Below are positions 17,348 through 37,567 of a DNA stretch of 64,000 nucleotides, in pieces (the first letter of the stretch is position 1; the number at the start of each line of letters is the position of its first letter). A program made the position numbers and the translations under genes. The stretch covers positions 705 through 64,704 of the forward strand of contig CAIJWE010000072.1 of the NCBI GenBank assembly GCA_903824295.1, read 5' to 3'. The notes below the pieces were generated by a model, which ran no database searches, was not told where the DNA came from, and was given only the letters and a program-made list of their open reading frames with translations. This DNA is from an uncultured Chlorobiaceae bacterium. Lineage in GTDB: Bacteria; Bacteroidota; Chlorobiia; Chlorobiales; Chlorobiaceae.

Positions 17348-19095
17348 ACAACCGCCAGATCACCACACTGTGGAGCCAGATCATTGTTGAAGAGCTGATC
17401 CGTCAGGGTGCAGATTTTTTCTGCATCTCACCAGGCTCACGCTCAACACCCCTCACCATCGCCATTGCAAGAAACCCGAAAGCGCGATGGAAAATGTTTG
17501 CCGACGAACGCTCAGCAGCCTTTTTTGCACTCGGTTATGGACGCGCAACCGCCCTGCCAGCCGTGCTCGTCTGCACATCCGGCACCGCTGTCGCCAACTA
17601 TTTTCCAGCAGTGGTTGAGGCATCAATGGACTTTCAGCCGATGCTTGTGCTTTCAGCCGACCGTCCCTTCGAGCTGCTTGAATGCGGCGCAAACCAGACC
17701 ATTCGCCAGGAGAACATCTTCGGCGGTTACACCCGGTGGCAGATGCAGCTCCCCGTACCATCAACCGATACTCCCCTCAAAGCGCTGCTCTCTACCATCG
17801 CCTACGCTATAGCAACATCTCTCGGAGAGTCAGCAGGCCCGGTCCACCTGAATCAGCCCTTCCGGGAGCCTTTTGAACCGGAACAACCTGATCAACATGA
17901 TCTCTGGCTTGCTCCCCTCCAGGAGTGGCTTGAAAGCGGAAACCCATTCAGCAGTTCGATAGTACCCGAAAAACAGCCTGACGGCAACACCATCACCATG
18001 CTCCGCAAACTGCTTGCAGCGGCAAAGAGGCCGATGATCATTGCCGGCAGCATGACAAGCAGGGCGGACGCGTTGGCGGTCAATGCACTGTCGATCGACC
18101 TGAACATTCCGCTCTACGCCGATTTTTCATCCGGCCTGAGAATGGTGGCCTCTGCCGATCCCTGGCAGCTCCTGCTCCAGTCAACCGAAGTTCGAAAATC
18201 ATTCAAGTGTGACCTTGTTTTGCACTTTGGCGGCAACGTCATTGCAAAACACCCCGCAACCGCGCTGAAAGAGTGGCAACCGGAACACTACATTGTTGTC
18301 AAGCCGCAACCGACACGCTTTTCCCCCGACCACAACGTCACCTGCCGTCTTGAAGCATCCATTGCACAGACAGCAGGAATGCTGAAAGGGTGCCGCGCCA
18401 CTCCGCCACAACCCGACAGCAACCCCGTTGAGCGCTTTTTCAAAAGAGCATCCGAAGAGATGCAAACCGAACTGCGTCCCGACAAGCCGGTCACCGACAT
18501 CTCCGCTGCCCGACTCGTTTCAGAGCTGATCACCAGCCAACAGGTGCTTTTTGTGTCAAACAGCATGCCCGTCAGAGATATGGACAACTATGCCAACAGC
18601 AGCCATGAAGGAGGCATTCCAACCGCCATCAACCGAGGAGTAAGCGGCATTGACGGCATCATCTCCACCGCTGCCGGTTTTGCTACTGGACACTTGAAGC
18701 CCGCAACACTGATGATTGGCGACATTGCATTTCTGCACGACCTCAACGCCCTCTCGCTCCTCGGCTCACTCCCGGTACCCATGCAGATCATCGTTTTGAA
18801 CAACAATGGTGGCGCAATATTCTCGTTCCTTCCGGTCTCAGCATGCAGCGACGTCTTTGAAACCCACTTCGCCACCCCCCAGAACTACAGCATCCGCTCA
18901 GCCGCCGAAACCTTCGGGCTCGACTATGCCGCCCCGCACACCAACCGCGAATTCAGTGAGGTGTACCGCGCTGCGTGCAGCAGCAACCGGAGCATCATTA
19001 TTGAGGTAAAAAGTTCACGGGCGGAGAATGTACTCCAGCACCGCGCCCTGCGGGAACAAATCATGACGCTGGCGGAAGAGGAACTCTGTCATTAA
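17344..19095 (+). CDS. menD: SEPHCHC synthase (ThDP-dependent)
   Basis: 'CISPGSRSTPL','CTSGTAVANYFPAVVEA','GDIAFLHDLNAL' are MenD signatures. Confidence 0.9.
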   Translation: MNNRQITTLWSQIIVEELIRQGADFFCISPGSRSTPLTIAIARNPKARWKMFADERSAAFFALGYGRATALPAVLVCTSGTAVANYFPAVVEASMDFQPMLVLSADRPFELLECGANQTIRQENIFGGYTRWQMQLPVPSTDTPLKALLSTIAYAIATSLGESAGPVHLNQPFREPFEPEQPDQHDLWLAPLQEWLESGNPFSSSIVPEKQPDGNTITMLRKLLAAAKRPMIIAGSMTSRADALAVNALSIDLNIPLYADFSSGLRMVASADPWQLLLQSTEVRKSFKCDLVLHFGGNVIAKHPATALKEWQPEHYIVVKPQPTRFSPDHNVTCRLEASIAQTAGMLKGCRATPPQPDSNPVERFFKRASEEMQTELRPDKPVTDISAARLVSELITSQQVLFVSNSMPVRDMDNYANSSHEGGIPTAINRGVSGIDGIISTAAGFATGHLKPATLMIGDIAFLHDLNALSLLGSLPVPMQIIVLNNNGGAIFSFLPVSACSDVFETHFATPQNYSIRSAAETFGLDYAAPHTNREFSEVYRAACSSNRSIIIEVKSSRAENVLQHRALREQIMTLAEEELCH

Positions 19096-19138
19096 CAATA
19101 GTGTCGGAGAGATCTGCACTTTTTGAGGGAAAAAAGAG

Positions 19139-19182
19139 AATTGCCCGGAAAACCTTGCTGAAGAGTGGTTCACCGGGCAATT
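19139..19182. terminator. 10-bp inverted repeat between menD and the FISUMP gene (terminator-like hairpin)
   Basis: AATTGCCCGG (19139-19148) and CCGGGCAATT (19173-19182). There is no clear U-tract. Confidence 0.35.
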
Positions 19183-19208
19183 GCAGGAATCATGACATTT
19201 CTATGCGT

Positions 19209-19961
19209 TTAATTCTTGATGCAGCGCACAGACATGCCATCAGCATTCTGTTCAGAGCCTTGAACAAAGGTTGGAAGGTGGTAAGAAAGAGCACCATACC
19301 ATGAGATTGTAGGAGTTACTTCAGAAGAAGTCCAGAAAAAAGCATTTTCACCCATAAAGAAAAAACCTCCATCGACGCCTCTCATGCCACCTGGCATTCC
19401 AGTGAATTTGCTGCTGTTATCGGCTGTAAAATTGGGCCTGCAGACCGATGAAAGTACATTGCCATTAGGAACACATACTGCGGGCTGGCCGCTGTTATCG
19501 GCTGTAAAAATGGGGCTGATCCAAAGTGTGGTGGATTTCATTTTTCCGCCAGCAACATAGACCCCGCCAAGTGCGTTTGAGAGTTTTTTGAACTCCTGAT
19601 TGTTCGGTATATGCCACCCTTTCGGAGCAAGACCGCGAGGATCGTGTACGGCATACCAGTTATAAAGGCGACCATATTTTCCGTTGCCGGCGGCATCATT
19701 TTTGTAGTAGCTCCATGCGCCTTTTCCACTTGCTGCGGCGTCAAGCCACTCCTGTGTCGTAGCGGCATGTTTAATCAGCTCTCCGTTGCGATAACGGCTG
19801 ACGTCAAGATTCTCCTGCATCCAGACCTGACCGCCTATGGTCACGGTATTGATAACGTGTCCGTCAATATCCGTCTCTGCCGCCCGGAGATCTGAAACCG
19901 AAGTCATAACGGTTATCAGGAGAAGAAGTAATCCGTAGAGTGCCTTATGTGAATAGTTCAT
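19209..19961 (-). CDS. Fibrobacter succinogenes major paralogous (FISUMP) domain protein
   Basis: Signal peptide; 'IGGQVWMQENL','GRLYNWYA','APKGWHIPNNQEFKKL' match the FISUMP pattern. Confidence 0.8.
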   Translation of the reverse strand: MNYSHKALYGLLLLLITVMTSVSDLRAAETDIDGHVINTVTIGGQVWMQENLDVSRYRNGELIKHAATTQEWLDAAASGKGAWSYYKNDAAGNGKYGRLYNWYAVHDPRGLAPKGWHIPNNQEFKKLSNALGGVYVAGGKMKSTTLWISPIFTADNSGQPAVCVPNGNVLSSVCRPNFTADNSSKFTGMPGGMRGVDGGFFFMGENAFFWTSSEVTPTISWYGALSYHLPTFVQGSEQNADGMSVRCIKN

Positions 19962-20267
19962 TGCCTGGTGTTTGATGTTTACAGTTGATTATGTTTTTAA
20001 GGACGTTATGTCTTGGTTAATCCGGCGATGCACCAGGAAATCCTGATGAACCTCACTTTTTCTTTTTTCTCCCCGCTTTAGATTGATAGAGTCTTGATCA
20101 TCTGCTTCTTTATTTTTTATCACGTGACAAAGGTACCGAGATTAACCTTTGGAAAAGGTTAACGTATTCTTAAAAAAGAGATAAATATTTGGGGATGAAT
20201 GATTGCGACCAAGACCAATAATTTTGAGAGTACGATTGATGCGCATGAGCGCAACAAGCTCGGCTGT

Positions 20268-20393
20268 TCATAATGCCGGTTTTTCCACTGCTTCGGCAAA
20301 GCGCTCCATATCGGTATAGCGTCCGAGCCCGGTTTCGGTAAATAAACCGAGATCATTGATGCCAAAAATGCCGATGCTGTCACATGAAAGAAG
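20268..20393 (-). pseudogene. Orphan C-terminal gene fragment (unknown family)
   Basis: Own translation: VLLSCDSIGIFGINDLGLFTETGLGRYTDMERFAEAVEKPAL*. It looks protein-like, but has no start codon and a stop lies immediately upstream. Confidence 0.25.
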
Positions 20394-20576
20394 AACTCAC
20401 CAAATCGTAATTAAAATTATAAATACACGTTATAGTGACTTTTCGATCATTTGCATCTTAAACTTCCGCAGCATAGGCATTGCTACATCAGATTGCCGCA
20501 GAGCTTTGTTATATTTGTTCTCACGTTGTACGCCGGATTTTGATAAATGAGCATTTGCCGGGAGGCATGACACACA

Positions 20577-22046
20577 TTGTTTACCGTTGCTGAAAAAAAC
20601 CGCCTGAACGTATCAAAGCGTACCGATGCGAAAAAGAAATCGCAGTTAGGGCAATATCTTACCCCCGCAAAGACGGCATCGTTCATGGCAGGGCTCTTTC
20701 CTCGGTCAAGTGGTGAATGCCGCCTGCTGGATGCCGGAGCCGGGATAGGTTCGCTCTCAAGCGCATTTCTTGAACGATGCTCAAAGGGAGATCTGGACTT
20801 CCACTCAATCCGGTTAAAAGCCTATGAGATTGACGACGTCATTCACGAAGAACTTCGAAACTCCCTTTCACCGTACAGTGCCATACCCCGATTCTCTTAT
20901 GAAATCATCGGAGATGATTTTATTGAAGCAGCCGTAAATGCAATTCAATTCAGAGAGTATGACTTTACTCATGCCATTTTAAATCCACCATACAAGAAAA
21001 TTGGGAGTTACTCAAGAGAGCGCCTGCTTCTTCGCCAGGTTGACATCGAAACGGTCAATCTCTATTCAGCTTTTGTGGCACTCGCTATAGCCCTGGCCGC
21101 CCCGGGAGGTCAAATTGTCGCAATTATTCCGCGCAGCTTCTGCAACGGCCCCTACTATCGTCCGTTTCGTGACTTTCTGCTTCAGTATGCTGCCATCCGC
21201 CACATCCACCTCTTCGACTCTCGCAGCCAGGCCTTCCGCGATGATGCCGTCTTACAGGAGAACATTATCATTCGGCTTGAACGTGATGGCTGTGTTGGGC
21301 CGGTGAGGGTTTCAACCTCTACTGACGACACGTTCAATGACCTTGCAACCACAGAATATCCATTCGAAAGCATTCTCTGGCCTGATGATAGAGAGCGCTT
21401 TATCCACATACCAACGTCACAAGAGGACAACTCCACCAAATTCTCCCCGGCAATTTCCTTTCAGTTGAGTGATCTGGGCATACAGGTATCAACAGGGCCG
21501 GTTGTCGATTTTCGGCTGAAAGAGCATCTGCGTGCCATGCCTGAAGCCGATACCGTGCCTCTCCTCTACCCCGGCCATTTCAGTGGTATCAAAAGCCGAT
21601 GGCCTATAGCCGGTATGAAAAAACCGAATGCCATTGTGAGAAACCCTGATACCGAAAAGTGGCTCTACCAGAATGCCTTTTACTGTGTTGTTCGACGCTT
21701 TTCATCCAAGGAAGAAAAACGTCGCATCGTGGCAAGTGTGGTTGAACCCGGCACATTTGGAGACGCAGCCATGCTTGGCTTTGAGAACCACCTGAACCTC
21801 TTTCACGAAAACAAAAAAGGATTGCCGGAAGCATTGGCACGTGGGCTTGCGGTCTATCTCAACACCAGCGCGGTCGATGAGCATTTTCGAAGCTTTAACG
21901 GCCACACACAGGTCAATGCCACAGACCTCCGGCAAATCAGGTATCCAAGCCGTGATGCCCTGACAGCACTCGGGAAATGGGTCATGCGGCAGGATGAGCT
22001 TGAAGAATCAGAAATTGAAGCCAGGATAAAAGCCATGACCGCATGA
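20577..22046 (+). CDS. N6-adenine DNA methyltransferase (Eco57I/PstI-type, gamma class)
   Basis: 'LGQYLTPAKTASFM', motif I 'LLDAGAGIGSLS', motif IV 'ILNPPYKKIG'. TTG start. The stop overlaps the start of the next gene (ATGA 22043-22046). Confidence 0.85.
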   Translation: MFTVAEKNRLNVSKRTDAKKKSQLGQYLTPAKTASFMAGLFPRSSGECRLLDAGAGIGSLSSAFLERCSKGDLDFHSIRLKAYEIDDVIHEELRNSLSPYSAIPRFSYEIIGDDFIEAAVNAIQFREYDFTHAILNPPYKKIGSYSRERLLLRQVDIETVNLYSAFVALAIALAAPGGQIVAIIPRSFCNGPYYRPFRDFLLQYAAIRHIHLFDSRSQAFRDDAVLQENIIIRLERDGCVGPVRVSTSTDDTFNDLATTEYPFESILWPDDRERFIHIPTSQEDNSTKFSPAISFQLSDLGIQVSTGPVVDFRLKEHLRAMPEADTVPLLYPGHFSGIKSRWPIAGMKKPNAIVRNPDTEKWLYQNAFYCVVRRFSSKEEKRRIVASVVEPGTFGDAAMLGFENHLNLFHENKKGLPEALARGLAVYLNTSAVDEHFRSFNGHTQVNATDLRQIRYPSRDALTALGKWVMRQDELEESEIEARIKAMTA

Positions 22047-23026
22047 AACGAAAAAAACAATATATCAAGGAGGCTCTTCAGGTTATCGCTTCACTTGGCT
22101 TGCCACGAGAACAGCATAACGAACGTTCTGCTCTTTGCCTTCTGGCTCTTCTTGGAATGACTCCAGGCAAGGAGTGGAGTGATGCTGAAAACCCGCTTAT
22201 GGGTATTACGCCTGTCATGGATTGGGTTCGTGAACACTATCGCAAGGAGTATGCCCCAAACACACGCGAAACATTCCGGCGGCAGACAATGCACCAGTTC
22301 TGCGACGCAGGTATCACGCGGTATAACCCCGACAAACCTGATCGTGCAGTTAACAGCCCCAAAGCGGTCTATCAAATCGAGTCCTCCACTCTGGCGCTGC
22401 TCCGCACCTTTGCCTCCAACACCTGGCATGAAGCACTGACAGCCTACCTCTCAGAAAGGGAGACGCTTATCGCCCGTTATGCAAACGAGCGTGAGCAGAA
22501 CCGCATTCCGGTTGAAATTGCTCCGGGAAAAAAAGTCACCCTGAGCCCCGGTGAGCACAGCCAACTGATCAAGTCCATTATCGAGAATTTTGCCTCTCGA
22601 TTTGCTCCCGGAAGTGTGCTGGTCTATGCTGGTGACACCGGTGACAAATGGAGTTATTTCGACGCTCCCCTGCTGTCAAGGTTGGGTGTAGATGTGGATG
22701 CTCATGGAAAGATGCCCGATGTCGTTCTGCATTACGCCGAAAAGAACTGGTTGTTGCTTGTTGAAGCAGTAACAAGTCACGGGCCCGTCAATGGAAAGCG
22801 GCACGACGAGCTTGCAAAGCTCTTCGAAGGGTCAAGCGCTGGACTGGTTTATGTGACAGCCTTTCCTGACCGGGCACTCATGAGTCGTTATCTTGGGGAT
22901 ATTGCATGGGAAACCGAGGTCTGGGTTGCTGACTCCCCCTCTCATCTCATACATTTCAATGGGCATCGCTTTCTTGGGCCGTATAGTGAGCCTGTTGATG
23001 TCAAGAAGATTGAACCTTTAGACTGA
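22043..23026 (+). CDS. BsuBI/PstI-family type II restriction endonuclease
   Basis: 327 aa (R.PstI is ~326 aa). 'PDVVLHYAEKNWLLLVEAVTSHGPVNGKRHDEL' matches the BsuBI/PstI catalytic region as I remember it. Coupled to the methyltransferase. Confidence 0.8.
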   Translation: MKRKKQYIKEALQVIASLGLPREQHNERSALCLLALLGMTPGKEWSDAENPLMGITPVMDWVREHYRKEYAPNTRETFRRQTMHQFCDAGITRYNPDKPDRAVNSPKAVYQIESSTLALLRTFASNTWHEALTAYLSERETLIARYANEREQNRIPVEIAPGKKVTLSPGEHSQLIKSIIENFASRFAPGSVLVYAGDTGDKWSYFDAPLLSRLGVDVDAHGKMPDVVLHYAEKNWLLLVEAVTSHGPVNGKRHDELAKLFEGSSAGLVYVTAFPDRALMSRYLGDIAWETEVWVADSPSHLIHFNGHRFLGPYSEPVDVKKIEPLD

Positions 23027-23036
23027 TTTTTGGCCA

Positions 23037-23369
23037 ATGTGGAACATGAACGACATTGTGCGTATCGCCTGCAAAGAGGGGTATGTTTACCATATCATCT
23101 TTGATAACGGCATCAGTGGCGACGTTGATTTTTCCGAATATCTTTCAAAGGGCCCTGTTTTTGAGCCGTTGAGAGAGTTAGCTTTTTTCCGGAAAGCATC
23201 AATTGAGGGTGGAACCATATCATGGCCAAATGGTGCAGACATTGCGCCCGAAACGCTCTACGACAAAATCCTGCAAGCTCAAAGCGATATCAATCCCGAG
23301 TGCCTTCATTCACAACCTGCAGATCATTTTCGAGAAGAAGTACAATCTCCCCTTTCGCTTCAGGGATAA
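23037..23369 (+). CDS. DUF2442 domain protein
   Basis: 'YHIIFDNGISGDVDFSEYL..GPVFEPLR...FFRKASIEGGTISWPNGADIAPETLY' is the DUF2442 pattern. Confidence 0.7.
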   Translation: MWNMNDIVRIACKEGYVYHIIFDNGISGDVDFSEYLSKGPVFEPLRELAFFRKASIEGGTISWPNGADIAPETLYDKILQAQSDINPECLHSQPADHFREEVQSPLSLQG

Positions 23370-23384
23370 AACGGGTGGCGAATT

Positions 23385-26120
23385 TCACTGCCTCTTATTT
23401 TTTTCTTTGAGGAGCATCTTTTGAAGATGCTCAACAACCGCCTGAGCATCACTATACTCTCCGGTGCTGCGGGCACGCTCACGCGATGCAAGCCCTCGGG
23501 CAATGAACTCCGATGTGTCTGCAAGAATGGTACGAATAGCTTCGGTCAGTTTATCGGAGGTATCTTGTTCTGACTCAGTCAAGTCAAGCAGAAATGCGGT
23601 GGCTTCGGGATTGATACGGCCATAGGTCAGAGTTTCTGCAAAATGACCTTCCTGAAGGGCGCGGAAGAGTGCACGGGCAAAAAAGAACTCAAGAAAGCTT
23701 CGGTGCGAAAAGCGGTAATAGCCGTCAGTACTCCGCACAAGGAAAGAGGCTGTACGCAGTTCAAGGTCAACCCGCTCACTGTCGAGGCTGCGGGCAAGTC
23801 CACCTTCATGATGCAGCAGCACGGCGAGATCGGTGTAGTGAATCTGGTTGCGTGGCCTGCTCCAAAGCTCACAGGCCATGCGCTCAAGCAGGTCGCGCAT
23901 GTGATCGACATTTACCTCCCCTTGGCTCAGAAGAATGGCGTTCAACCAGCGGGTAGTGTAGGTCAGGTAGAGTGACCCGGTGGTCACTTTCTCTCCCTGT
24001 TTTATCAGATCGGGAAGAGAAGCTACAATCATATCAAGCAACTGGGGTGTTGAAGCGATATCCTGAAAGCCATATCTCTCTTCGATAAACTGCCGCGCCT
24101 GATCACCCTCAACAATGCCGAGGCGCTTTTGCAAGTACTCGGCAATCTGCTCATTTGTGAAGACGGGCAAAGTATCGAGCGTAGCATCGAAAGCACGTGC
24201 AGCCTTGCCCAGAGCTGAATCTGCTTCGAAGAGCTTGTCACTACCCTCAACTGCTTGCCGAGCACTGCTGTTGTCGCGGAAGAAGTGGCTGCGAGAGGTG
24301 ATGAGTACCCGGTTGGCACGTGGGTTACGACCGGAATTTGCTGTTGGACGCACCAGTTGGCGGAACTGCTCTTCAACACTGCGTCCGGCCTGAGCTACGC
24401 CCATTTCATCAAAACTGTCGAGCAGGAGTACCAAGCGCCCGGCTTCAAGCAAGTGCAGCACGATCTCTGGATTGAGCACGGTGCGCAGTTCGGTTTCGAG
24501 ATGCTCGCGAATCAGGCTTTCAATCGAAATGGCATTGGGAAACTGGCGCAGATTGATTTCGACCGGAATCGGGCTTTCGGGATTATTTTCGCAGTTACGG
24601 GCAAGTTCGTAGGCAAGACGCTCAACCAGCGTGCTTTTACCGGTACCATAATCGCCGAGCACCAGCCACAATCGACTTCCCGCTCCTGAAACCCACTGGA
24701 GCGCATGAGGCAACATCGGCACCGGTTTTTCGTCGGGCTGCTTTTCAAGAATCAGATATTGATCGACATAGTTACCTGCAAGTGCACTTGCTTCGTAGCG
24801 CTGACGGATGCGGGCAAGGTAGGGTGAAAAATCGAAGAGACTGCGCTCAAGTTCATCGTAGGTGAGGGCCAATATCCCTGCATTTTTTGAGGTTTTGCGG
24901 GCTGCGGGGGTGAAATCGTGTGAAGCAATAATCATACCTTTTGCCTGCATTACTCTGGCATCAGGGTCATCAAGCCAGGTTCTGAATTTCGTAACAGTTC
25001 CCTCTGGAGTGACGGCCTGATGATCCTTACACTCTACAAGATAAACCTCCTCTCTTCCGAAATCGCTTCTTTTCCGGGCAACCAGGTCTATCCTGTGCGA
25101 ATCGATCAACTGTTCCCGTTCAACGGTATAACCAAGCAGACGCAGAAGGTGGGCAACTCGCTCTTCGAATCTTTTACCTTGTGCATTGCTCTCCTTGTTA
25201 CGGCGGGTTATCAGGTCGGGACGGGTATCGTCGCTACGACGGGCCGTCTCGCTCTCAGCGATAACCTGCTGGCGCACTTTGTCGATTCGGCGTTCCAGAT
25301 CGTTATAGGCTTTGGCTACCGGAGTTTCCGGGCGTGTTGCTGCGTAAAGTTCTTCGGTGAAGAGCATACGCTGATCAAAAGGGATGGTGTCCAGCTCAGA
25401 GTGTGTCAGACCAAAGGACTCTTTCCAAATCTCTTGGCCTTGGGCACGCAAATCTGAAATATCCGGAATCGGTGAAGCAACCAGCAAGCGGGTAAGGGGC
25501 GGCAGCGTACCCCGTGCGGCAATTCGCCCCTCGCAGGCTGATTGGAGGGCTTGCCAGACGTGGGCAAGTCCTTTGGTATTTTGCCTGCCGTAGTTGCCGA
25601 CAAGAACGGTGGCGTGTGGCAGCAGGGCGGCAAGCAGACCGCCAATGTCGGTGATACCAGTACGAGAGTCGAGCAACACTGTTTCGAAACCTGCTTTACC
25701 GAAGGCATCAAGGATACCGCGAAAAAGCCCAAGACCGCTGTCGAGATCACGAACCAGAAAATCGTCCCAACGGATGCTCTGGAAAAGCCCGGCAAAATCT
25801 TTGTTATCGCCATAGGCGGGCAAGATGAAGAGGCGATCCTGTTCCGGCGTCTGGCAAGCGAGTTTGACAAGTTTGCCGAAATCAGCTTTGTTCGATGCTT
25901 TTCCAGACTCCTGCCATGCAATCATCCATTCAAAAAAACCCTCTTTGACCGGTTTTGATGGTGTCAACCCCGGGATATTGTGCAACCCAGGCGCTTCGAT
26001 ATCAAGATCCCACAGCAGCGTCTTGCCGCGCCGGGCGCAAAGAACACCGATATTGGCGGCAAGCAGGCTGCGCCCGACTCCGCCCTTGAAGCTGTAGAAG
26101 GTTACGATGAAGGGAGTCAT
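23385..26120 (-). CDS. Fusion protein: ParA/MinD-like ATPase (variant KGGVGR P-loop) + Mrr-like restriction endonuclease + NACHT/STAND NTPase
   Basis: aa 1-290: 'FYSFKGGVGRS', 'LWDLD', 'VLLDSRTG'. aa ~315-430: 'GKRFEERVAHLLRLLGYTV..RIDLVA..VYLVECKD' (PD-(D/E)xK). aa ~480-870: Walker A 'GDYGTGKST' (nt ~24634-24657), Walker B 'LVLLLDSFDEM', 'RVLITSRSHFF', and a winged helix 'YRFSHRSFLEFFFA'. Confidence 0.8.
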   Translation of the reverse strand: MTPFIVTFYSFKGGVGRSLLAANIGVLCARRGKTLLWDLDIEAPGLHNIPGLTPSKPVKEGFFEWMIAWQESGKASNKADFGKLVKLACQTPEQDRLFILPAYGDNKDFAGLFQSIRWDDFLVRDLDSGLGLFRGILDAFGKAGFETVLLDSRTGITDIGGLLAALLPHATVLVGNYGRQNTKGLAHVWQALQSACEGRIAARGTLPPLTRLLVASPIPDISDLRAQGQEIWKESFGLTHSELDTIPFDQRMLFTEELYAATRPETPVAKAYNDLERRIDKVRQQVIAESETARRSDDTRPDLITRRNKESNAQGKRFEERVAHLLRLLGYTVEREQLIDSHRIDLVARKRSDFGREEVYLVECKDHQAVTPEGTVTKFRTWLDDPDARVMQAKGMIIASHDFTPAARKTSKNAGILALTYDELERSLFDFSPYLARIRQRYEASALAGNYVDQYLILEKQPDEKPVPMLPHALQWVSGAGSRLWLVLGDYGTGKSTLVERLAYELARNCENNPESPIPVEINLRQFPNAISIESLIREHLETELRTVLNPEIVLHLLEAGRLVLLLDSFDEMGVAQAGRSVEEQFRQLVRPTANSGRNPRANRVLITSRSHFFRDNSSARQAVEGSDKLFEADSALGKAARAFDATLDTLPVFTNEQIAEYLQKRLGIVEGDQARQFIEERYGFQDIASTPQLLDMIVASLPDLIKQGEKVTTGSLYLTYTTRWLNAILLSQGEVNVDHMRDLLERMACELWSRPRNQIHYTDLAVLLHHEGGLARSLDSERVDLELRTASFLVRSTDGYYRFSHRSFLEFFFARALFRALQEGHFAETLTYGRINPEATAFLLDLTESEQDTSDKLTEAIRTILADTSEFIARGLASRERARSTGEYSDAQAVVEHLQKMLLKEKNKRQ

Positions 26121-26779
26121 GCGGCATCGTTCATGTTTCGAATTTTCAAGTGCGATTGAATCGTGGCGTCTGTTGAGAATAACCCTCGAAAACCTGTCAC
26201 GGGTGCAGCCGTCTTTGGCGCTGCGCTTGTAGCGTGCTTCCTCCCGTTCTCAGTGAGTTGCAAAAGAATATCACGGCCATGTTTCCGCTTGGTTACCAAG
26301 CCGCTTGATTCGAGATTCCCGATAAGCTGAGTGACTCGCCCCGCACTGACTCCAAGTTTTTTAATAAGATCCAGTTGGGGGAGTTCACGATTTCCTGTTT
26401 CGAGAAGCAATTGCAGGATTTCCGGAACATGACGGCGTTTCAGTTGTGTCTCAGGATCGGCATGGGCAAGATTGAGTCGCCTCGCTTCGAGCATATCACT
26501 CGCCTCCTGCCATCGGTATATGAACTCTTCAGGAAGCGATGCTGGCGAATTTGCACCGTTAAGAGTTCGATGAATAAGACGTTGCATTTCAGATATACCT
26601 TCGCGATCGTTGAGTCGAGCAATTGCATCCATTGACCAGACGGTAATCAACAGATTGGCCATATCCAGAGCCTGTTCATCCCATTTTTCAAGTGTCCGAA
26701 TGGCTTCAAAGAGTTCGGATGGTGTAGAGCGATCGACAAACAGTATAGGATCGCTGGCATGAAGATCGAGTGTGCTCAT
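26117..26779 (-). CDS. Winged-helix (MarR-like) DNA-binding protein, N-terminal domain unknown
   Basis: The C-terminus 'LDLIKKLGVSAGRVTQLIGNLESSGLVTKRKHGRDILLQLTENG' is wHTH-like. The stop overlaps the start of the 911-aa gene (ATGA). Confidence 0.6.
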   Translation of the reverse strand: MSTLDLHASDPILFVDRSTPSELFEAIRTLEKWDEQALDMANLLITVWSMDAIARLNDREGISEMQRLIHRTLNGANSPASLPEEFIYRWQEASDMLEARRLNLAHADPETQLKRRHVPEILQLLLETGNRELPQLDLIKKLGVSAGRVTQLIGNLESSGLVTKRKHGRDILLQLTENGRKHATSAAPKTAAPVTGFRGLFSTDATIQSHLKIRNMNDAA

Positions 26780-26863
26780 GAGAGTATTTCTAAATTATCC
26801 TAAACCTTTTTAGTTAGAATTAATTTAACATTATTTAGCTATTAAAAAATTCCTGCCTGCATA

Positions 26864-28150
26864 TCAACTCAAGTCAACCAGCGTAAAATAGTCGAATTCA
26901 TCCCTGGTTACAGAGACGATAACCAGATCTTCTTTACACTCAACAAATTTCTGGTGCTGCACAAACCCGCGCACTGGAGTTGAACCAGCAGGCATTTCCT
27001 GATTGGCGACAGCCACAATTGTTCCGAGCGTATCGTGCATTGTTTTTGCTGTCGCCTTATGTGGATTAAGTTTATCGGTCATGCTCGGAACAAGCAGCCA
27101 GTCAAGCGGCAGAGAAGCCAACACCATGGCAGGTTCGCCTTCAAAAAAATCTTTGCAGATCGCCATGGCCATCAGTCCGAGTGATGTAAACAAGCAGGTA
27201 AAATGATTCGGAGCACATTCTATACCCTCCTTTCGCTTGTTAAAGGTAACCGATTTGCGCTTATCGCAGCCAAACAGGAGTGTGCCGTCCAGCCCAAGCA
27301 TAGCCTCAGCATGATTTCGCCACCCTTTTTCGACCTGCTCATGGAAGCTTCCGAGAACAATGAGAGGAACCGAGAGGGAATGCTTTTCACCATTTTTTCT
27401 GTGCAATTGCTGAAACTCTGAAACGATTCGGGATCTGATATCGGGAGTGATTGTAAGCTCTGGCATCACAAGGATGTGAGCGTTTCGTTTTTTTTCTTCA
27501 CTGATATGGTGCAGCGCCGATGCAAAACGCGTTTCAGTGTCACTGATCTCTTTGCAGATGAAGTGCGAGGGCTTCTTGTCAGAAACATTCGGCCTCACTC
27601 CGTCATCAAAATGAACGACGGCAATTCTGATCGTTGTTGCAGAAAAATGATTTGCAAGCCAATCATGGTAGCCCCTCGGTATTCCAACCACATTGACAGG
27701 AATCTTTTGAGGGTTATTGTGCGGTACCACTCTGTAATGCTTCAACCAATAGGCAATATTGCCAAATTGCAAGCGCTTTCCACCCCCGCACGATTCAGAT
27801 TTTTGATAAATTGGCAGCATCCAGACCTGATCTTCACCATCATCAATACGTAAATTCCGTAAATAACCATACGATTTCGGGTTAATACGAACGCAAAAAT
27901 CGTCAAGAGCCCTAAGCCAAAGCAACGGATCATTGTTGACCTCTTCGGACGTAATCGTTGATTCTTTATTGTCGATGCTTTCGATGCGATCTATGGCATC
28001 CATGAGCATCAATTCATCCTTTTCATGCTGGTTTTCCCAATCGTCAAGAACCCGGCGACCATCAATAGTTGGCGAACCCGCAAGTCGGCACAGACGGGCA
28101 AGAGCCTGGCGGTAACTTTTGGCATTGATAAATTCAGCTACCTTTTCCAT
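26864..28150 (-). CDS. Two-domain protein: unknown N-terminal domain + nitrilase-superfamily (CN-hydrolase)-like domain
   Basis: aa ~173-428 follow the CN-hydrolase layout: 'IRIAVVHFD', 'AHILVMPE(231)L', 'LFGCDK(297)RK', 'GLMAMAIC(332)KDFFE', 'DWLLVPS'. I recognise no motif in aa 1-170. Confidence 0.6.
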   Translation of the reverse strand: MEKVAEFINAKSYRQALARLCRLAGSPTIDGRRVLDDWENQHEKDELMLMDAIDRIESIDNKESTITSEEVNNDPLLWLRALDDFCVRINPKSYGYLRNLRIDDGEDQVWMLPIYQKSESCGGGKRLQFGNIAYWLKHYRVVPHNNPQKIPVNVVGIPRGYHDWLANHFSATTIRIAVVHFDDGVRPNVSDKKPSHFICKEISDTETRFASALHHISEEKKRNAHILVMPELTITPDIRSRIVSEFQQLHRKNGEKHSLSVPLIVLGSFHEQVEKGWRNHAEAMLGLDGTLLFGCDKRKSVTFNKRKEGIECAPNHFTCLFTSLGLMAMAICKDFFEGEPAMVLASLPLDWLLVPSMTDKLNPHKATAKTMHDTLGTIVAVANQEMPAGSTPVRGFVQHQKFVECKEDLVIVSVTRDEFDYFTLVDLS

Positions 28151-28396
28151 ACTTGAGCTTCACCTGTTGTTCTGGCAGAGCCGGAAAATAGTAACGTCAT
28201 TCCGGCGTTGATTGCACAACCAATCCAGATGATTGCGACAGAAGAGTATCTGCTCAGGTTACAAAGTTTTTTCTTGCTTAACAACCATCATTTTCACTCG
28301 CAAATCATTTTCTGCACATCGATAAGGTTTCTATATTAATCCGGAATCGTTCCTGATGACCACCCTAAACAAGCATAACAATCTGTCAATAATAGT

Positions 28397-29221
28397 ATGC
28401 CCACAACAACCAGTTCCAATAGTGAGACCCCACTCAACACTGAAAGCGTAAAGGATTCTTCCCTGCCCCGCATCATCTTTTTGCACGGCTTTCTGGGCTC
28501 GGGGAGCGACTGGGCTCCAATGGCCCGGCAGCTTGAAAATGATTATTGCTGCATTCTGGTTGACTTGCCTGGGCACGGAGAGAGCGATATAGAAGCAAAC
28601 GGCAACCCTGACCTCTTTTTTACCGAAACTGTCGATGCGCTTGCGGAAGAACTGAGCCGCTCGGCAACTCCCGAACCCTGCTTTCTTGTCGGCTATTCGA
28701 TGGGCGGGCGTATCGCGCTCTCCCTGCTGCTGCGCCACCCGGAACTCTTTGCCAAAGCGATTATTGTCTCTGCCTCCCCCGGCCTCAGAACCGAAGAGGA
28801 GCGCCTCAACCGACGGGAAAGCGACGAAGGTATTGCACGAAAAATTGAAAAAAACTTTGAGGGATTCATTGATGCGTGGTATGAGCAGCCACTCTTTGCC
28901 ACACTCAAAAGTCACCCGATATTCAAAGAGGTTGAGGGTGAACGAAAAATCAATAATCCTGAAAATCTTGCCCTTGCTCTCAGGTTGCTCGGCACGGGTC
29001 GGCAGCCCTCTGCGTGGGATGAACTGCAAAAAAACAGGGTGCCGATACAATTTTTTGCAGGGGAAAAAGACCTGAAATTCGTTGAGATTGGGCGTCAAAT
29101 GGTTAATTTATGCACTGAATCAACGCTTGAGATTTTTCCCGGCTGCGGTCACACGCTGCACATTGAAAACCGGGAGCTGTTTCTTGACCGCCTGACACAA
29201 TTTTTCAACAAGCATCAATAA
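28397..29221 (+). CDS. menH: SHCHC synthase (alpha/beta hydrolase)
   Basis: 'FLHGFLGS', nucleophile elbow 'GYSMGGR', and its position immediately upstream of menB. Confidence 0.8.
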
Positions 29222-29228
29222 TCCTGAT

Positions 29229-30050
29229 ATGAGCGCTGTAAACTGGATACCAGAAGGTGACTTTACCGACATCCTTTACCATAAAGCTGAAGGCATTGCC
29301 AAAATCACCATCAACCGCCCGGAAGTGCGCAATGCGTTCCGCCCGCAAACGGTTGACGAGATGATTGAGGCCCTTCAAGATGCAAGGAATGACAATGCAA
29401 TTGGTGTTATTATCCTCACGGGCCAGGGCGATCTGGCCTTCTGCTCGGGCGGCGACCAGAAAATCAGGGGTAACGCCGGTTATGCCGACGGCAAAGGGGT
29501 CAACAAGCTCAATGTCCTCGATTTTCAGCGCGATATCCGCACCTGCCCGAAACCGGTTATTGCCATGGTTGCCGGGTACTCCATCGGCGGCGGCCACGTG
29601 CTCCACATGCTCTGCGACCTCACCATTGCGGCTGAGAATGCCATCTTCGGCCAGACCGGCCCCAAGGTTGGTTCATTTGACGGAGGATGGGGTGCAAGCT
29701 ATATGGCACGGCTTGTCGGTCAGAAAAAGGCACGCGAAATATGGTTCCTCTGTCGCCAGTACAATGCTGCAGAAGCGCTTGCCATGGGGCTGGTGAACAC
29801 CGTTGTGCCGCTCGAACGGCTCGAAGAGGAGACCGTGCAGTGGTGCCGCGAAATTCTTGCCAACTCCCCGCTTGCCATCCGCTGCCTGAAGTCGGCTCTT
29901 AATGCCGATTGTGACGGTCAGTCTGGCCTGCAGGAACTTGCTGGCAATGCCACCATGCTCTATTATATGAGTGAAGAGGGTCAAGAGGGGCGCAACGCCT
30001 TTGTCGAAAAACGGAAGCCTGATTTCAGCAAATTTCCCAAAAGACCGTGA
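29229..30050 (+). CDS. menB: 1,4-dihydroxy-2-naphthoyl-CoA synthase
   Basis: Crotonase fold; '[12 protein letters not shown]','FCSGGDQK','[10 protein letters not shown]','[17 protein letters not shown]'. Confidence 0.92.
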
Positions 30051-31120
30051 ACGCGGCGCATATCGTTCTCTACCGATATGCCATCCCCTTTACGGAGCCC
30101 GTCACCGTCAAGGGGCGGCGTCTTGTGCAACGGGAGGGCATTATCGTTGCACTGAAAAGTCAGGGAGAGCGGCATATCGGCTATGGTGAAATTGCTCCGC
30201 TTCCGGGTCTGCACCGGGAAGTGCTGCAATCAGCCGAAGCACAACTGGTAGAGCTGCTGGCAAAACACGATCTTGCCAATCCCAGCCTTTTGCTGGAAGG
30301 GCTCTACCCCTCGGTTCGTACCGGTCTGGAGATGGCGATGATCAACCTTGACGCAGCCATAGGGGGCACTCTTCCCGCTTTTGCAGATGCCGGGCCTGCC
30401 GCCCGCCAGGTACCAGTCAATGCTCTCCTCTTTGGCGATACAACGCTCGTCACACAGCGGGCAGAGGAGTATTTCACACTTGGATACCGCACCTTCAAGC
30501 TTAAAGTCACGGCAAGTGATACCGAGAGTGCCATCAGAAGCATCAGGGCACTGTACCGCACCTTCGGAGATCGTATTGAGCTACGGCTTGATGCTAACCA
30601 GTCGCTCACACTTGACGAAGCGCTCGATTTTGCGCAACACATTCCGCAAGGAAGCATCGCCTATATCGAAGAGCCACTGAAAAAGGCCGAGCTGATTAGC
30701 GAATTTTGGGCAAAAACAGCGATCCCCTCAGCACTCGACGAAACGCTCTGGCAAAAACCTGAACTGCTCTCTGAACTTCCTGAAGCATCACTTGCGGCGC
30801 TGATACTGAAGCCAAGCCGGTTGGGAGGTATTTCAACCGCACTGACCTTCGCCAGATATGCGAGAGAACACAATCTGCTTGCGGTTTTCAGCTCCGCGTT
30901 CGAAAGCGGCATCAGTCTGAGCTTTTACGCCTGGTTGGCAGCATCAACTGCCGTCAAACCAGCCGCCTGCGGGCTCGACACCTACCGTTATCTGAAGCAC
31001 GACCTGCTCGAAACAGCGTTTGGAGCTGAGAATGCTCTGCTTGATGCTCAAAAACTCTACGGAGAAGGGTTAAAGGTCAATCAAAGATGTCTCAAGCGTA
31101 CTTCAGTATGGACATTATAG
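30047..31120 (+). CDS. menC: o-succinylbenzoate synthase (enolase superfamily)
   Basis: 'FKLKV','LRLDANQS','YIEEP','LKPS' metal and acid-base motifs, plus men-operon context. Confidence 0.85.
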
Positions 31121-32592
31121 GGCCGGCGGCAACGCGATTCGGCAACGCGCCCATGCTGAGAATTGGTGGCAAAACGATCTCCTTCACTGAATGCGAGAGA
31201 GCAGCGCAAAAGATTGCAAAGAGCCTCGGACGAAAGGGAGTTCGTGCCGGAGATATTGTGGCAATTGCCGCGCCAAACAGCGGGGAGATGGTACTGCTTC
31301 TTCTCGGGCTGCTGAAAGCCGGCATGATTGCCGCGCCGCTCAACTACCGTTTTCCGGAACACCTGCTCAGCAAAACGCTGGAACGGCTGAATCCCCGTCT
31401 GGTGGTTACCTCCCATCACGAGCAATTCACCCGTTTCAGCACAGTAACACTTGCCTCACTTCTTGACTATCCGTCGCGCGGCACAGAACGCAGCAAAACC
31501 CTTGAGGAGAGCCCGACTGACGCACCTCCGGAGTCTGGAGCAGCGAACACAATGGATCGTTCCGTAACCATTATCCACACCTCCGCAAGCTCGGGGGAGG
31601 CAAAAGCGGCTCTGCACAGCTTTGCCAACCACTGGTATAACGCTCTCGGCTCGAATGAAAATATTGCGTTTGGTGCGGGTGACTGCTGGCTTCTTTCACT
31701 GCCGCTCTACCACATTGGCGGCTACTCACTCCTTTTCCGATCGCTCATCTCCGGCGGCGCACTTGCTCTCGCAGAACCGGATGAATCGCTCGGCCAATCG
31801 CTGCAAAACTTCCCGCTCACCCACCTCTCCCTTGTACCCACGCAGCTCTACCGTCTGCTTGATGACCAAAAGAGCACGGCCCTGCTCCGCCAGTTGAAGG
31901 TCGTTCTGCTCGGCGGAAGTGCCGCGCCAAAATCGCTGATTGAAGAGGCTATCCGCGAGGCTATCCCCCTCTACCTGAGTTACGGCTCAACCGAGATGGG
32001 ATCACAGATTGCAACCACTCCTGCACCGATAACCGCCACCGAGCAGAACAGCGGCCAACTCCTCCCCTACCGGGAGCTGAGTGTAGCAAAAGATGGAGAG
32101 TTGCTGGTCAAAGGGCCCTGTCTCTTTCAGGGATACTTGCGAGATGGCGTTATTCAGCCCCAAACCGACCGGGAGGGGTGGTTTCATACCGCCGACATCG
32201 GCACTTTATCAAAAAAAGGGGAGGTTACCGTACTTGGCCGCAAGGACAATATGTTCATCTCAGGAGGGGAAAACATCCACCCCGAAGAGATCGAAAGAGC
32301 ACTGATGATGGTTGAGGGTATTCTGGAAGCTCTGGTCATCGCGGCTCCTGATAAGGAATATGGCCATCGCCCCGTGGCCTTCATAAAAACCGCTGCTGCA
32401 GAAACACCTGATGACGCAACCGTCGTCGAGGCCATGCGCTCTATGGTTGGAAAACTGAAAAGCCCGACCAGTTACAGCCGGGTAAACGAGTGGACGACAC
32501 TGCCTGGCTCACAAAAGATCGACCGTAAATTTTACAACAAGCTGGTTCTTGACGGCTATTGGCCGCTCAGCCCCGTGCCGCCTGACGCTTAA
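31087..32592 (+). CDS. menE: o-succinylbenzoate-CoA ligase (AMP-binding)
   Basis: 'IIHTSASSGEAKA','SYGSTE','WFHTADIG','GGENIHPEEIE' adenylate-forming motifs. The start may be Met at 31108. Confidence 0.85.
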   Translation: MSQAYFSMDIIGPAATRFGNAPMLRIGGKTISFTECERAAQKIAKSLGRKGVRAGDIVAIAAPNSGEMVLLLLGLLKAGMIAAPLNYRFPEHLLSKTLERLNPRLVVTSHHEQFTRFSTVTLASLLDYPSRGTERSKTLEESPTDAPPESGAANTMDRSVTIIHTSASSGEAKAALHSFANHWYNALGSNENIAFGAGDCWLLSLPLYHIGGYSLLFRSLISGGALALAEPDESLGQSLQNFPLTHLSLVPTQLYRLLDDQKSTALLRQLKVVLLGGSAAPKSLIEEAIREAIPLYLSYGSTEMGSQIATTPAPITATEQNSGQLLPYRELSVAKDGELLVKGPCLFQGYLRDGVIQPQTDREGWFHTADIGTLSKKGEVTVLGRKDNMFISGGENIHPEEIERALMMVEGILEALVIAAPDKEYGHRPVAFIKTAAAETPDDATVVEAMRSMVGKLKSPTSYSRVNEWTTLPGSQKIDRKFYNKLVLDGYWPLSPVPPDA

Positions 32593-33112
32593 GCCTGCGC
32601 ACGGCATAGGCTCCACCAAGGCCGGCTATCAGTGCATAAAAAGCGCCAAAAACAACCGCGTTCATCAGCAGGTCGGTGAAGGTTAACTCTGCCGGTGCAA
32701 GAACAAGTTTTTTGGCCTCCACAAGCGTCCGCACCTGCTCCTGAAGCTCCGGTTTTCCCTTTGCTACATCGAGCATCCAGTCAATCACAAAGAGAAAGCT
32801 CTCCATTCCCGGTGTATAATTGATAACCTGAATGAGAAGAAAGCTGACAACTACGGAGAGGATACCTCCAACCAGACCGCTCGTACATCCCAGAACAAAG
32901 GCTTCACTGTAGGGCAATCTCACCTGGAAGCGCATGATGGTCTGATGAAGCGCAACCGCTCCAGCCACAAAAATGCCGACAGGAAGAAGAATATTGAGCA
33001 GGGTAAGGTAGGGTACCGTTGTTGTAACAAGAATAATGGCCGCACCCAGCAGAACAGCGAACCGTTTCCCCGCAAACGGCAAACGAGAATGAACCGGTTT
33101 TTCAGCAGGCAT
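32567..33112 (-). CDS. Multi-pass membrane protein (DUF4199-like?)
   Basis: 181 aa with 4-5 hydrophobic helices and no catalytic motif. Confidence 0.5.
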   Translation of the reverse strand: MPAEKPVHSRLPFAGKRFAVLLGAAIILVTTTVPYLTLLNILLPVGIFVAGAVALHQTIMRFQVRLPYSEAFVLGCTSGLVGGILSVVVSFLLIQVINYTPGMESFLFVIDWMLDVAKGKPELQEQVRTLVEAKKLVLAPAELTFTDLLMNAVVFGAFYALIAGLGGAYAVRRLKRQAARG

Positions 33113-33143
33113 ATCTTTCAGAGAAAATTTTATTCATGATGGG

Positions 33144-33668: not shown

Positions 33669-33727
33669 ACAAATAACACAGTAAAAGAAAACCTATCACA
33701 TTGAAATAATATGCGGCATCCTGATCT

Positions 33728-34048
33728 CTAACTTGCCATCCAACCAATAATCCGCCCATGTCCCCACTGTATAAAAATCGAAAATACAACCAATAAAATC
33801 ACCGTGATGACTGCCTTACGAACTCCAGCGGCTCTCGATACTGTTGTAGCTTCGCTTGCATAAATACTCGGAGTTTCCTTGATTGCAGCCCACCAAAGAA
33901 AACCAGGTATAAGCAAAGAAAAAGGCCAAATGAAAAGTACGAGCACATATCCCGCCCATCCCCAAACGTCTTTCATTACTTTTACATAGGCAAGGGTCTG
34001 AATACCGCCTAAAAAGAATGCTCCGACAGTACCAAAGATGAGAAACAA
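33728..34048 (-). CDS. Hypothetical small membrane protein
   Basis: 106 aa with three hydrophobic, Trp-rich segments. No recognisable family. Confidence 0.4.
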   Translation of the reverse strand: MFLIFGTVGAFFLGGIQTLAYVKVMKDVWGWAGYVLVLFIWPFSLLIPGFLWWAAIKETPSIYASEATTVSRAAGVRKAVITVILLVVFSIFIQWGHGRIIGWMAS

Positions 34049-34300: not shown

Positions 34301-34321
34301 TTTCAGTTTTATGGGGTTAAG

Positions 34322-36769: not shown

Positions 36770-37567
36770 CTACGGCTGACGAACTTTAAATTTATCAATA
36801 TTGCCATCCCTTTCAAAAATCTCCTGGGCCAGATCAAGATAGTCTTTCGATCCTATACACTGTGCATCATAAAGCAAGGCTGGCTTGCCATGACTTGGCG
36901 CCTCGGAAAGCCGTACATTGCGGCGAATATAGGTTTTGTACACCTTCTCCTTGAAAAATTTCTTGACCTCCTCAGCAACCTGCGATGCCAGCCGGAGCCG
37001 CGCATCATACATGGTCACCAGAACCCCTTCGATCTCGAGCTTTGGATTGAGGTGCTTGCGAACGATACTGATGGTATTAAGCAGTTTTCCCAACCCCTCA
37101 AGCGCATAATATTCAGCCTGAACAGGAATCAGAACGGAATCTGCCGCCGTAAGTGAATTCAGGGTGATAAGACCGAGCGAGGGCGGACAGTCGATAATGA
37201 TGTAGTCGTAGAGGTCGCGGATACCCTTGAGCGCCTTCTGCATCACATACTCACGCTCTTTCATGTTCACCAGCTCAACCTCCATCCCGACAAGATTGAC
37301 ATTGGAAGGAAGCACATCAAGATACTCCAGACTGGATGATTTAATGGCATCCTGTATCTTGCCGCCCTTTACCATCACCTGGTAAAAGGTATTGTCGATC
37401 TCATCGCCAATTTCAAGGCCGAAACCAGAGGTCGCATTGGCTTGCGGATCGATATCGATCAGCAGCGTCCGGAACTCAGAGATGGCGATAGAGGCCGCTA
37501 TATTAACAGAAGTGGTTGTCTTTCCGACCCCCCCCTTCTGGTTTGCAATCGCAATAACTCTGCCCAT
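36770..37567 (-). CDS. parA: Chromosome partitioning ATPase ParA/Soj
   Basis: Deviant Walker A '[11 protein letters not shown]','IDCPPSLG'. Located upstream of parB. Confidence 0.92.

Follow-up and report, generated by a model that had tools for sequence, protein, structure and literature searches.

The NACHT gene and its domains

A stretch of 64,000 nucleotides from an uncultured Chlorobiaceae bacterium (contig CAIJWE010000072.1, positions 705 to 64,704; here called the window) carries on its minus strand, at 23385..26120, an open reading frame (ORF) of 911 amino acids. Pfam and NCBIfam divide it into a KGGVGR-type MinD/Soj-like domain, an Mrr nuclease domain, a NACHT module and a short tail. 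An intact frame of 911 codons is much longer than chance would give, and the matches to the domain models are highly significant. The gene is probably a 3'-truncated, sensor-less allele of a widespread family resembling nucleotide-binding leucine-rich repeat receptors (NLRs), with the architecture KGGVGR MinD/Soj-like domain, Mrr nuclease, NACHT, pentapeptide repeats and WD40 propeller. In the conserved operon to which the NACHT gene normally belongs, it comes third, preceded by the genes for a nitrilase-fold hydrolase and for a MarR-like winged-helix protein. The ORF and all the motifs quoted in an initial annotation are real when read in translation, LWDLD lying at residues 36-40, VLLDSRTG at 148-155, GTGKS at 492-496 and YRFSHRSFLEFFFA at 802-815. 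The AlphaFold2 model of the protein has a mean predicted local distance difference test (pLDDT) score of 86.2.

The KGGVGR-motif variant MinD/Soj-fold domain covers residues 1-298 (25227..26120, minus strand), as delimited with NF047398, profile comparison to the PDB and Foldseek. NCBIfam NF047398, "KGGVGR-motif variant AAA ATPase", matches residues 3-192 over profile positions 2-189 of 190, with 113.4 bits against a cut-off of 90. Pfam CbiA matches residues 7-167 at 27.0 bits (cut-off 25.4), and Pfam ParA (PF10609) remains below its cut-off (20.8 vs 27.1 bits). A profile built from 18 N-terminal domains matches only ParA, Soj, MinD, Mrp and ArsA chains in the PDB, the best being Soj 1wcv (E 2.3e-9), which is colinear over residues 12-41 and 138-290, through the C-terminal helix; this comparison was limited to the N-terminal alignment, as the full-length family profile is swamped by WD40 matches. 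The model has a pLDDT of about 90 or more over residues 1-298, and Foldseek returns MinD, Soj and FlhG at target-normalised template modelling (TM) scores of 0.70-0.77. Because the NF047398 score, the Soj profile match and the AlphaFold2 superposition agree, the assignment holds, and the N-terminal 290 residues make up a complete MinD/Soj-fold domain. The ParA/MinD-like domain with a Lys-to-Arg P-loop that the initial annotation had proposed is thus borne out, and a different fold, the possibility it had set against its own proposal, is found neither by profile nor by structure.

The deviant Walker A sequence FKGGVGRS occupies codons 11-18 (26067..26090, minus strand), where the signature lysine (K12) and S18 are kept and the P-loop lysine is replaced by R17. 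Conservation of this arginine had been named as a check, and all 110 N-complete homologues, with identities as low as 30%, have KGG[VA]GR[ST]. In an alignment of 75 sequences R17 never varies, and neither do G13, G14, G16, D40, D151, R153, T154 and G155, while D38 is nearly invariant; D38/D40 and D151 align to the D-A-D and the switch-I/Walker-B aspartates of MinD. An unbiased profile search of 1.84 billion representatives gave 3,973 clusters at E<=1e-30. Residue 17 of the 125 new top matches is Arg in 115, Cys in 3, Gln in 1 and Lys in 0, the N-terminus being absent in 6, so that arginine is found in 115 of 119 distant N-complete representatives and lysine in none. The canonical ParA/MinD P-loop lysine (KGGxGK[ST]) is therefore never seen in the family; the ParA of the window used for comparison (36770..37567, minus strand) has KGGVGKTT.

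The KGGVGR arginine is the fixed hallmark of a large domain family that has already been curated. The orthologue in Pelodictyon phaeoclathratiforme BU-1, WP_012509092.1, bears the NCBI name "KGGVGR-motif variant AAA ATPase". The domain also heads other architectures, among them a form of about 615 residues with TPR repeats, one with TIR, DUF4062, NACHT and FGE-sulfatase, and one with TIR/SEFIR, DUF4062 and TPR. What looked like a variant ParA is no anomaly; it is the hallmark of a domain family, thousands strong, found at the N-terminus of conflict proteins of the TPR type and of the signal transduction ATPases with numerous domains (STAND) type.

Residues 313-426 (24843..25184, minus strand) are an Mrr-type PD-(D/E)xK nuclease domain, matched by Pfam Mrr_cat at 55.1 bits (cut-off 21, E 1e-14); the "inactive" model NA-iREase1 reaches 20.9 bits on this segment, under its cut-off of 27. 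The catalytic columns E319, D345 and E363-x-K365 are conserved in 58-66 of the 75 homologues and degenerate mainly in a subfamily of about 850 residues. Since the window copy retains all of them, the Mrr domain is a plausible effector, as had been suggested, with a nuclease activity that is predicted from the catalytic residues.

The NACHT NTPase module, with its helical and winged-helix parts, spans residues 432-868 (23517..24827, minus strand), as judged from Pfam, conserved columns and Foldseek. Pfam NACHT matches residues 484-616 with 44.8 bits (cut-off 26.7). The P-loop is normal, as described earlier, with Walker A GDYGTGKS at residues 489-496 (G489, K495, S496), and Walker B is normal too, in the clade-specific form D568-S-F-D-E572; these columns are conserved. 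The winged-helix histidine is H806. Foldseek places NLRP3, NOD2 and NLRC4 on top (E about 1e-11).

Replacement of the sensor region

The window copy has no C-terminal sensor of the kind that completes the tripartite STAND layout (repeats, FGS or a dedicated short domain), and no repeat family is matched by Pfam in the 911-residue protein. The initial annotation had reported about 70 residues after the winged helix and no repeats. The absence of repeats stands; the count does not, as 96 residues follow "FFFA", of which 816-868 are still homologous to the family and 869-911 alone are allele-specific. The idea that the family is sensor-less by design does not survive comparison with its relatives, since proteins 84-88% identical to the window copy, and an allele at 98% over residues 1-822, carry pentapeptide repeats and WD40.

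The repeat-bearing homologues with pentapeptide and WD40 regions are 1141-1443 residues long (P0002, P0005 and P0006 at 84-88% identity, P0010 and P0012 at 75%). Their similarity to the window in tblastn ends at residues 868-874. At this junction the long forms read ...IRTIL.NPY.E.TSE / NALLIAYR... and the window copy ...TSE / FIARGLASRERARS..., and tblastn with the long homologues detects no pentapeptide or WD40 remnant anywhere in the 64 kb. In place of the pentapeptide and WD40 region stands an allele-specific tail of 43 residues (869-911) with its stop codon (23385..23516, minus strand), delimited by the end of homology and by pLDDT. The tail shows no homology to the family and has a pLDDT of 35-54 in the AlphaFold2 model. 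It is common to the window, L001, L014, L088 and L091.

The full-length locus L003 encodes a 423-aa protein, a 221-aa winged helix-turn-helix (wHTH) protein and a 1179-aa NACHT protein directly between menH and menD. Measured against it by blastn breakpoints, the segment that takes the place of the 3' sensor-coding part extends from 19064 to 23521. This segment holds a FISUMP (Fibrobacter succinogenes major paralogous) gene, a BsuBI/PstI methyltransferase and endonuclease, a DUF2442 gene and the tail, and displaces about 1 kb of repeat-coding DNA. A repeat search found no insertion sequence (IS)-like terminal repeats or target duplications around it. The comparison with L003 shows that, in the Pelodictyon/Chlorobium lineage of the window, a rearrangement placed the 43-aa tail and foreign genes after residue ~868. 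On these alignments the lack of a sensor is shown to be secondary, the short form of the window copy having evidently been derived from a repeat-bearing form.

Recombination has moved 3' ends between alleles. A 1738-aa allele with pentapeptide repeats and about 14 WD40 repeats (P0197) is 98% identical to the 911-aa BU-1 allele over residues 1-822, and identity drops to 56% over residues 823-868. This pattern shows that 3' cassettes were exchanged by recombination inside the conserved "FSHRSFLEFFFARALFRAL" region. The nuclease domain, too, appears to be recombined in a cassette-like manner. The Mrr segment (window 24801-25250, residues 291-440) exists as two allelic types, only 74% identical, in proteins that are otherwise 95-98% identical; one type is carried by the window, P0001 and P0194, the other by BU-1, P0197 and P0196.

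Four classes of C-terminus (A-D) were defined among the Chlorobiaceae loci. Class A has pentapeptide repeats and WD40. Class B is an in-frame fusion to a complete second NLR, DUF4062(DrHyd)-NACHT-FGE-sulfatase, in proteins of 1922-1932 aa (L009, L013 and, in part, L010). Class C, to which the window belongs, has the short tail followed by a convergent DUF2442 gene (also L001, L014, L088-90, which are of the BU-1 type, and L091/92). In class D the frame is stopped at codon 887 and the WD40 part forms an ORF of its own (L002, 887-aa and 516-aa ORFs). At least five diverged genomes, that of P. phaeoclathratiforme BU-1 among them, have the truncated allele. Class B corresponds to class C minus about 0.95 kb; the two-NLR fusions, at L009 6001-11796 and L013 6001-11766, apparently arose by a deletion of this size and persist in three lineages. 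The fused proteins have a synonymous divergence (dS) of 0.26-0.52 and a ratio of nonsynonymous to synonymous divergence (dN/dS) of 0.12-0.17 when compared with each other. Taking the second NLR cleanly out of L091 gives the arrangement of the window: blastn of the two places the junction at 23000..23001, where L091 has 3.9 kb encoding DUF4062(DrHyd)-NACHT-FGE-sulfatase.

Operon partners

The gene directly upstream of the NACHT gene encodes a 220-aa MarR-like winged-helix protein (26117..26779, minus strand; Pfam HTH_24 and MarR_2 at residues 120-170). Its stop codon overlaps the NACHT start codon (ATGA), and its winged helix, residues 120-175, lies behind the N-terminal half. This wHTH gene occupies the same position throughout the Chlorobiaceae loci and at many loci from other phyla, and both the gene and the 4-nt overlap with the NACHT start are always kept.

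The other partner is a 428-aa protein (26864..28150, minus strand) with an N-terminal helical domain of about 95 residues and a nitrilase-superfamily (CN-hydrolase) fold, assigned from its model (pLDDT 92.2) and from Foldseek, which returns Nit2, N-carbamoylputrescine amidohydrolase and amidases at E about 1e-11. Residues E231, K297, E308 and C332 are invariant in 56 homologues. Pfam gives no match to the window's protein, CN_hydrolase included, and CN_hydrolase does match some of the homologues.

The operon order hydrolase, wHTH and KGGVGR...NACHT is conserved across phyla. The 428-aa partner is present in all 15 or more sensor-bearing loci (Chlorobi, Beta- and Gammaproteobacteria, Myxococcota, Magnetococcales and Acidobacteria). 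Of 7 sensor-less lineages, 5 (L001, L002, L006, L014 and L088) have lost it through deletions that each have their own breakpoints; only the window and L091 combine sensor loss with an intact partner. Partner loss is associated with sensor state (Fisher p = 8e-4), and this tie suggests that the hydrolase may act at the sensing or ligand step. Hydrolase deletions in L008 and L013, which blastn gaps had indicated, were ruled out by tblastn, the genes being intact but divergent. The subfamily of about 850 residues, which is repeat-less and Mrr-degenerate, has three more operon genes downstream; at L007 8553-12269 they encode 349, 455 and 433 aa after the NACHT gene, with overlapping stops and starts and without a significant Pfam match. 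A promoter and terminator scan of 22900-28500 gave counts at the level of shuffled sequence.

The menD-menH island

The gap between menD and menH is a hotspot of variable defence genes in Chlorobiaceae that splits the menaquinone genes (window 17344-31120; L001-L004, L009-L014, L088-L092). Its content differs in every genome examined and includes NLRs, a restriction-modification pair, a toxin-antitoxin-like pair, an IS200-like Y1 transposase, and FISUMP or DUF6345 genes.

The DUF2442 gene (23037..23369, plus strand; Pfam E 1e-16) points towards the NACHT gene, with 15 bp left to the stop codon of the latter, and is found beside every truncated allele examined. It has the look of one half of a small toxin-antitoxin-like pair brought in with the truncation. 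The window copy has a weak match to the DhiA antitoxin model, and it lacks the DUF4160 gene that precedes DUF2442 in the BU-1-type locus (L088 13095-13355).

The BsuBI/PstI-type II restriction-modification pair (20577..23026, plus strand; Pfam, PADLOC) is intact, with an Eco57I-like methyltransferase of 489 aa (20577-22046) and an endonuclease of 327 aa (22043-23026) whose start overlaps the methyltransferase stop. Window 21777-23000 aligns to L091 at 95% identity. L014 has the methyltransferase, and a homologue of the endonuclease segment (window 21992-23000) was not found in the 14.8-kb locus examined. The FISUMP protein at the menD edge (19209-19961, minus strand) has 250 aa and a signal-peptide-like N-terminus; it is absent from L003.

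Outside the island, the roughly 1.9 kb at 33113-35044, between a DUF4199-like gene (32567-33112) and dapB (35045-35794), contain a 174-aa ORF (33144-33668) and then no ORF of at least 150 aa. This looks like another small insertion, as the DUF4199-like gene and dapB are adjacent in L088 and L091. The sole match of the Rfam and tRNA scans of the 64-kb window is an unrelated tRNA-Asp (GTC) at 13025-13100 on the plus strand.

Relation to known systems

The N-terminal 190 residues score above the NF047398 cut-off, with a KGGVGR[ST] motif identical to that of the window copy. NF047398 names a domain only and is silent on the Mrr-NACHT fusion, the operon and the truncation. The fold is that of ParA, Soj and MinD over the whole 290 residues (T. 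thermophilus Soj 1wcv/2bej, MinD 4v02/1g3q), and the KGGVGR domain shares with them the signature lysine, the Ser/Thr after the P-loop, the switch-I D38/D40 and the Walker-B D151. Unlike them, it has an invariant arginine for the P-loop lysine, is fused to a nuclease and a NACHT module, and has no ParB- or MinE-type partner.

Predicted-inactive MinD/ParA-like domains in effector position, some coupled to STAND (AP-ATPase) proteins, have been described in the VMAP-ternary and peptide-processing systems, which are NTP-dependent conflict systems (Kaur, Burroughs, Iyer, Aravind 2020, eLife, PMC7159879). Like those domains, the one in the window is MinD/ParA-like, predicted to be without catalytic activity, placed where effectors lie and coupled to a STAND protein; the text of that paper leaves an exact match to the KGGVGR clade unconfirmed, and the same applies to a description there of the nitrilase, wHTH and NACHT operon. 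The KGGVGR variant is not new, being a curated NCBIfam domain, and inactive MinD/ParA-like domains of STAND conflict systems were described in 2020. Literature searches on KGGVGR, NA-iREase1 and PDC-M28 gave nothing relevant. No paper was found on the three-gene operon (hydrolase, wHTH, NACHT) as a system, and for NACHT with a CN-hydrolase the only mention found is a figure legend in Kibby et al.

A closely similar architecture is that of NACHT clade 11, listed in Table S1 of Kibby et al. (bioRxiv 10.1101/2022.07.19.500537) as X + (i)REase + NACHT + pentapeptide + beta-propeller/WD40, where REase is a restriction endonuclease domain and, in the listed proteins, caspase, TIR or calcineurin lies N-terminal of it. 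The comparison is one of domain order. The likeness is to the full-length relatives, in which a REase-fold domain right before NACHT is followed by pentapeptide repeats and then WD40; the window copy is without repeats. The place of X is taken here by the KGGVGR domain, absent from the clade-11 entries checked in that table, and the REase is apparently active and of the Mrr_cat rather than the NA-iREase1 type. The entry "MNS" in the table was considered as MinD/NifH/Soj and rejected; it denotes a STAND clade (Npun2340/2341 family).

Two other proteins of the same study offer partial parallels (Kibby et al., bioRxiv 10.1101/2022.07.19.500537). The anti-phage protein bNACHT25 combines an Mrr-like REase with NACHT, and resembles the window copy in having an Mrr-type nuclease as presumed effector of the NACHT switch. 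The bNACHT01 clade has a short C-terminal extension and consists of functional NACHTs without repeat sensors. Both differ from the present family in being single-gene systems without a KGGVGR domain, and bNACHT01 ends in a short domain that is conserved and diversifying (SNaCT), whereas the short C-terminus of the window copy is a truncation scar. PADLOC matches residues 6-234 to positions 131-354 of the 438-position PDC-M28B profile (E 2e-15), which is not full-length, and finds no PDC-M28A among the neighbour genes. An identity with PDC-M28 was rejected on the grounds of this partial B match and the missing A component.

Maintenance or decay of the truncated allele

The initial annotation had allowed that a long repeat domain might simply be truncated here, making this copy a decaying gene. 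The truncation is confirmed, but decay is not clearly seen. Five diverged class-C alleles are all intact, with more than 900 codons, despite a dS of 0.10-0.41 in the truncation-specific segment. Pairwise dN/dS of the truncated alleles over codons 1-822 is 0.06-0.12, the same as for full-length pairs and for the flanking men genes. When 9% neutral substitution was simulated the ORF stayed open in only 0.02% of cases. Judged from these sequences, the short allele does not appear to be plainly decaying.

Several points weigh against this reading of the gene. Codons 823-911 evolve faster than codons 1-822, with dN/dS of 0.20-0.61. The truncation-specific 3' end has a dS of 0.10-0.41 against values up to 0.78 in the 5' part, a difference which argues that the short 3' end may have spread by recombination, with the 5' constraint partly inherited from full-length alleles. 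Recombination at the locus is rampant, as seen in the two Mrr allelic types and the swapped 3' cassettes. Some Chlorobiaceae alleles are degenerate (P0021, R17C, stop at 673 aa). The independent loss of the nitrilase-fold partner in 5 of 7 sensor-less lineages suggests that the system erodes once the sensor is gone. NLRs are often auto-active after loss of autoinhibitory repeats, and how a competent nuclease is tolerated here is unexplained. The mechanism of the family, set out below, is drawn wholly from analogy.

A relic in slow decay is accordingly a possibility to be taken seriously, if not the one we favour: the three-gene system would be useless after sensor loss, and the ORF would be open only because little time has passed since then and functional alleles repair it by recombination. 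Such a course is consistent with the five nitrilase-partner deletions, all in sensor-less lineages and none in the 15 or more sensor-bearing loci, with the split gene of L002 and the 659-673-aa alleles, one of them with R17C, and with a tail that combines low model confidence and relaxed dN/dS with a dS below that of the 5' part. It is hard to square with the intact truncated alleles and their low dN/dS, and at 9% divergence neutral drift would close the ORF in 99.98% of cases; moreover, the winged-helix partner and its 4-nt overlap are always kept, and three lineages have retained genes in which the truncated unit is fused in frame to a second NLR. These fusions bear on another account, in which the truncated unit is an executor or helper that relies for sensing on an adjacent DUF4062(DrHyd)-NACHT-FGE-sulfatase NLR, this neighbour having since been deleted in the window to leave an orphan. 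The truncated allele does adjoin a second NLR in L014, L088-90 and L091/92, the two are fused in frame in L009, L010 and L013 (1922-1932 aa), and the window differs from L091 by the clean 3.9-kb deletion of the second gene. Adjacency is, however, expected by chance in a defence hotspot, the fusion could be a neutral accident of the 0.95-kb deletion, there is no evidence that the two NLRs interact physically, and the window lineage keeps its truncated gene intact without the neighbour, all of which makes the account unlikely.

We consider it quite improbable that the window copy is a STAND protein designed to lack a sensor, with infection sensed by the KGGVGR domain or by its two operon partners and with Mrr as executor, as the initial annotation had envisaged; a delegation of sensing to either finds no support. 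The KGGVGR domain, the winged-helix partner and NACHT do form the invariant core of the family, including the naturally repeat-less subfamily of about 850 residues; NACHTs with a short C-terminus can defend against phage (bNACHT01 clade); and the nitrilase-fold partner of the window is intact and appears catalytically complete. The short form is nevertheless derived from a repeat-bearing one, and the extra three operon genes of the 850-residue subfamily could supply other functions there. Sensing by the partners is weakened because the hydrolase is gone from most other carriers of the sensor-less gene. Sensing by the ParA-like domain fits poorly with its place, which in related NACHT proteins is the effector or adaptor position: Kaur et al. 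put the MinD/ParA-like domain with effector-position domains (PMC7159879), and the domains N-terminal of the REase in the clade-11 entries of Kibby et al. are caspase, TIR and calcineurin.

Proposed mechanism and implications

By analogy with bacterial NACHT and Avs proteins, the pentapeptide and WD40 region of the full-length family would bind a ligand and so release the NACHT switch. Nucleotide exchange and oligomerisation of NACHT would then gather the N-terminal modules, and their proximity would activate the Mrr nuclease. In P-loop NTPases a Lys-to-Arg change usually keeps nucleotide binding and cripples hydrolysis. As the signature lysine, the Mg-binding Ser/Thr and the switch-I and Walker-B aspartates are kept, the KGGVGR domain may bind nucleotide and dimerise like Soj or MinD, hydrolysing it poorly or not at all. 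Apart from the hydrolytic lysine, nothing that a Soj or MinD sandwich dimer requires is missing from it. For the same reason a nucleotide-bound dimerisation module, serving assembly or targeting, would be favoured over a sensor. Such a module would fit the position of the domain, which in the clade-11 NACHT proteins of Table S1 is held by caspase, TIR or calcineurin.

The window copy is most likely a folded, nucleotide-binding protein with a competent nuclease and without ligand-specific triggering. The odds seem about even between a remaining role that is regulated or partner-dependent, as opposed to classical sensing, and a gradual loss of the gene. A bolder proposal, to which we give little credence, is that the KGGVGR domain would be an ATP-locked, Soj-like dimerisation or DNA-clamping module that loads Mrr onto DNA at NACHT oligomerisation, and that the sensor-less allele would persist as a helper (executor) NLR whose trigger comes in trans, either from a separate sensor NLR or from the nitrilase and wHTH partners. 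If true, this would be a bacterial counterpart of the sensor/helper NLR pairs of plants, and the in-frame NLR fusions and the co-loss of hydrolase and sensor would be its genomic footprint.

For annotation, the window gene is to be read as a truncated NLR-like allele. The findings are not surprising enough so far to alter thinking on STAND immunity. They do provide a natural allelic series within one genus, in which the gene is full-length, split by a stop, truncated to the tail or joined to another NLR, the nitrilase-fold partner being present or absent in each case. This series could be used to ask what roles the KGGVGR domain and the nitrilase-fold partner have, whether a bacterial NLR can bear the loss of its sensor, and why the hydrolase then becomes dispensable.

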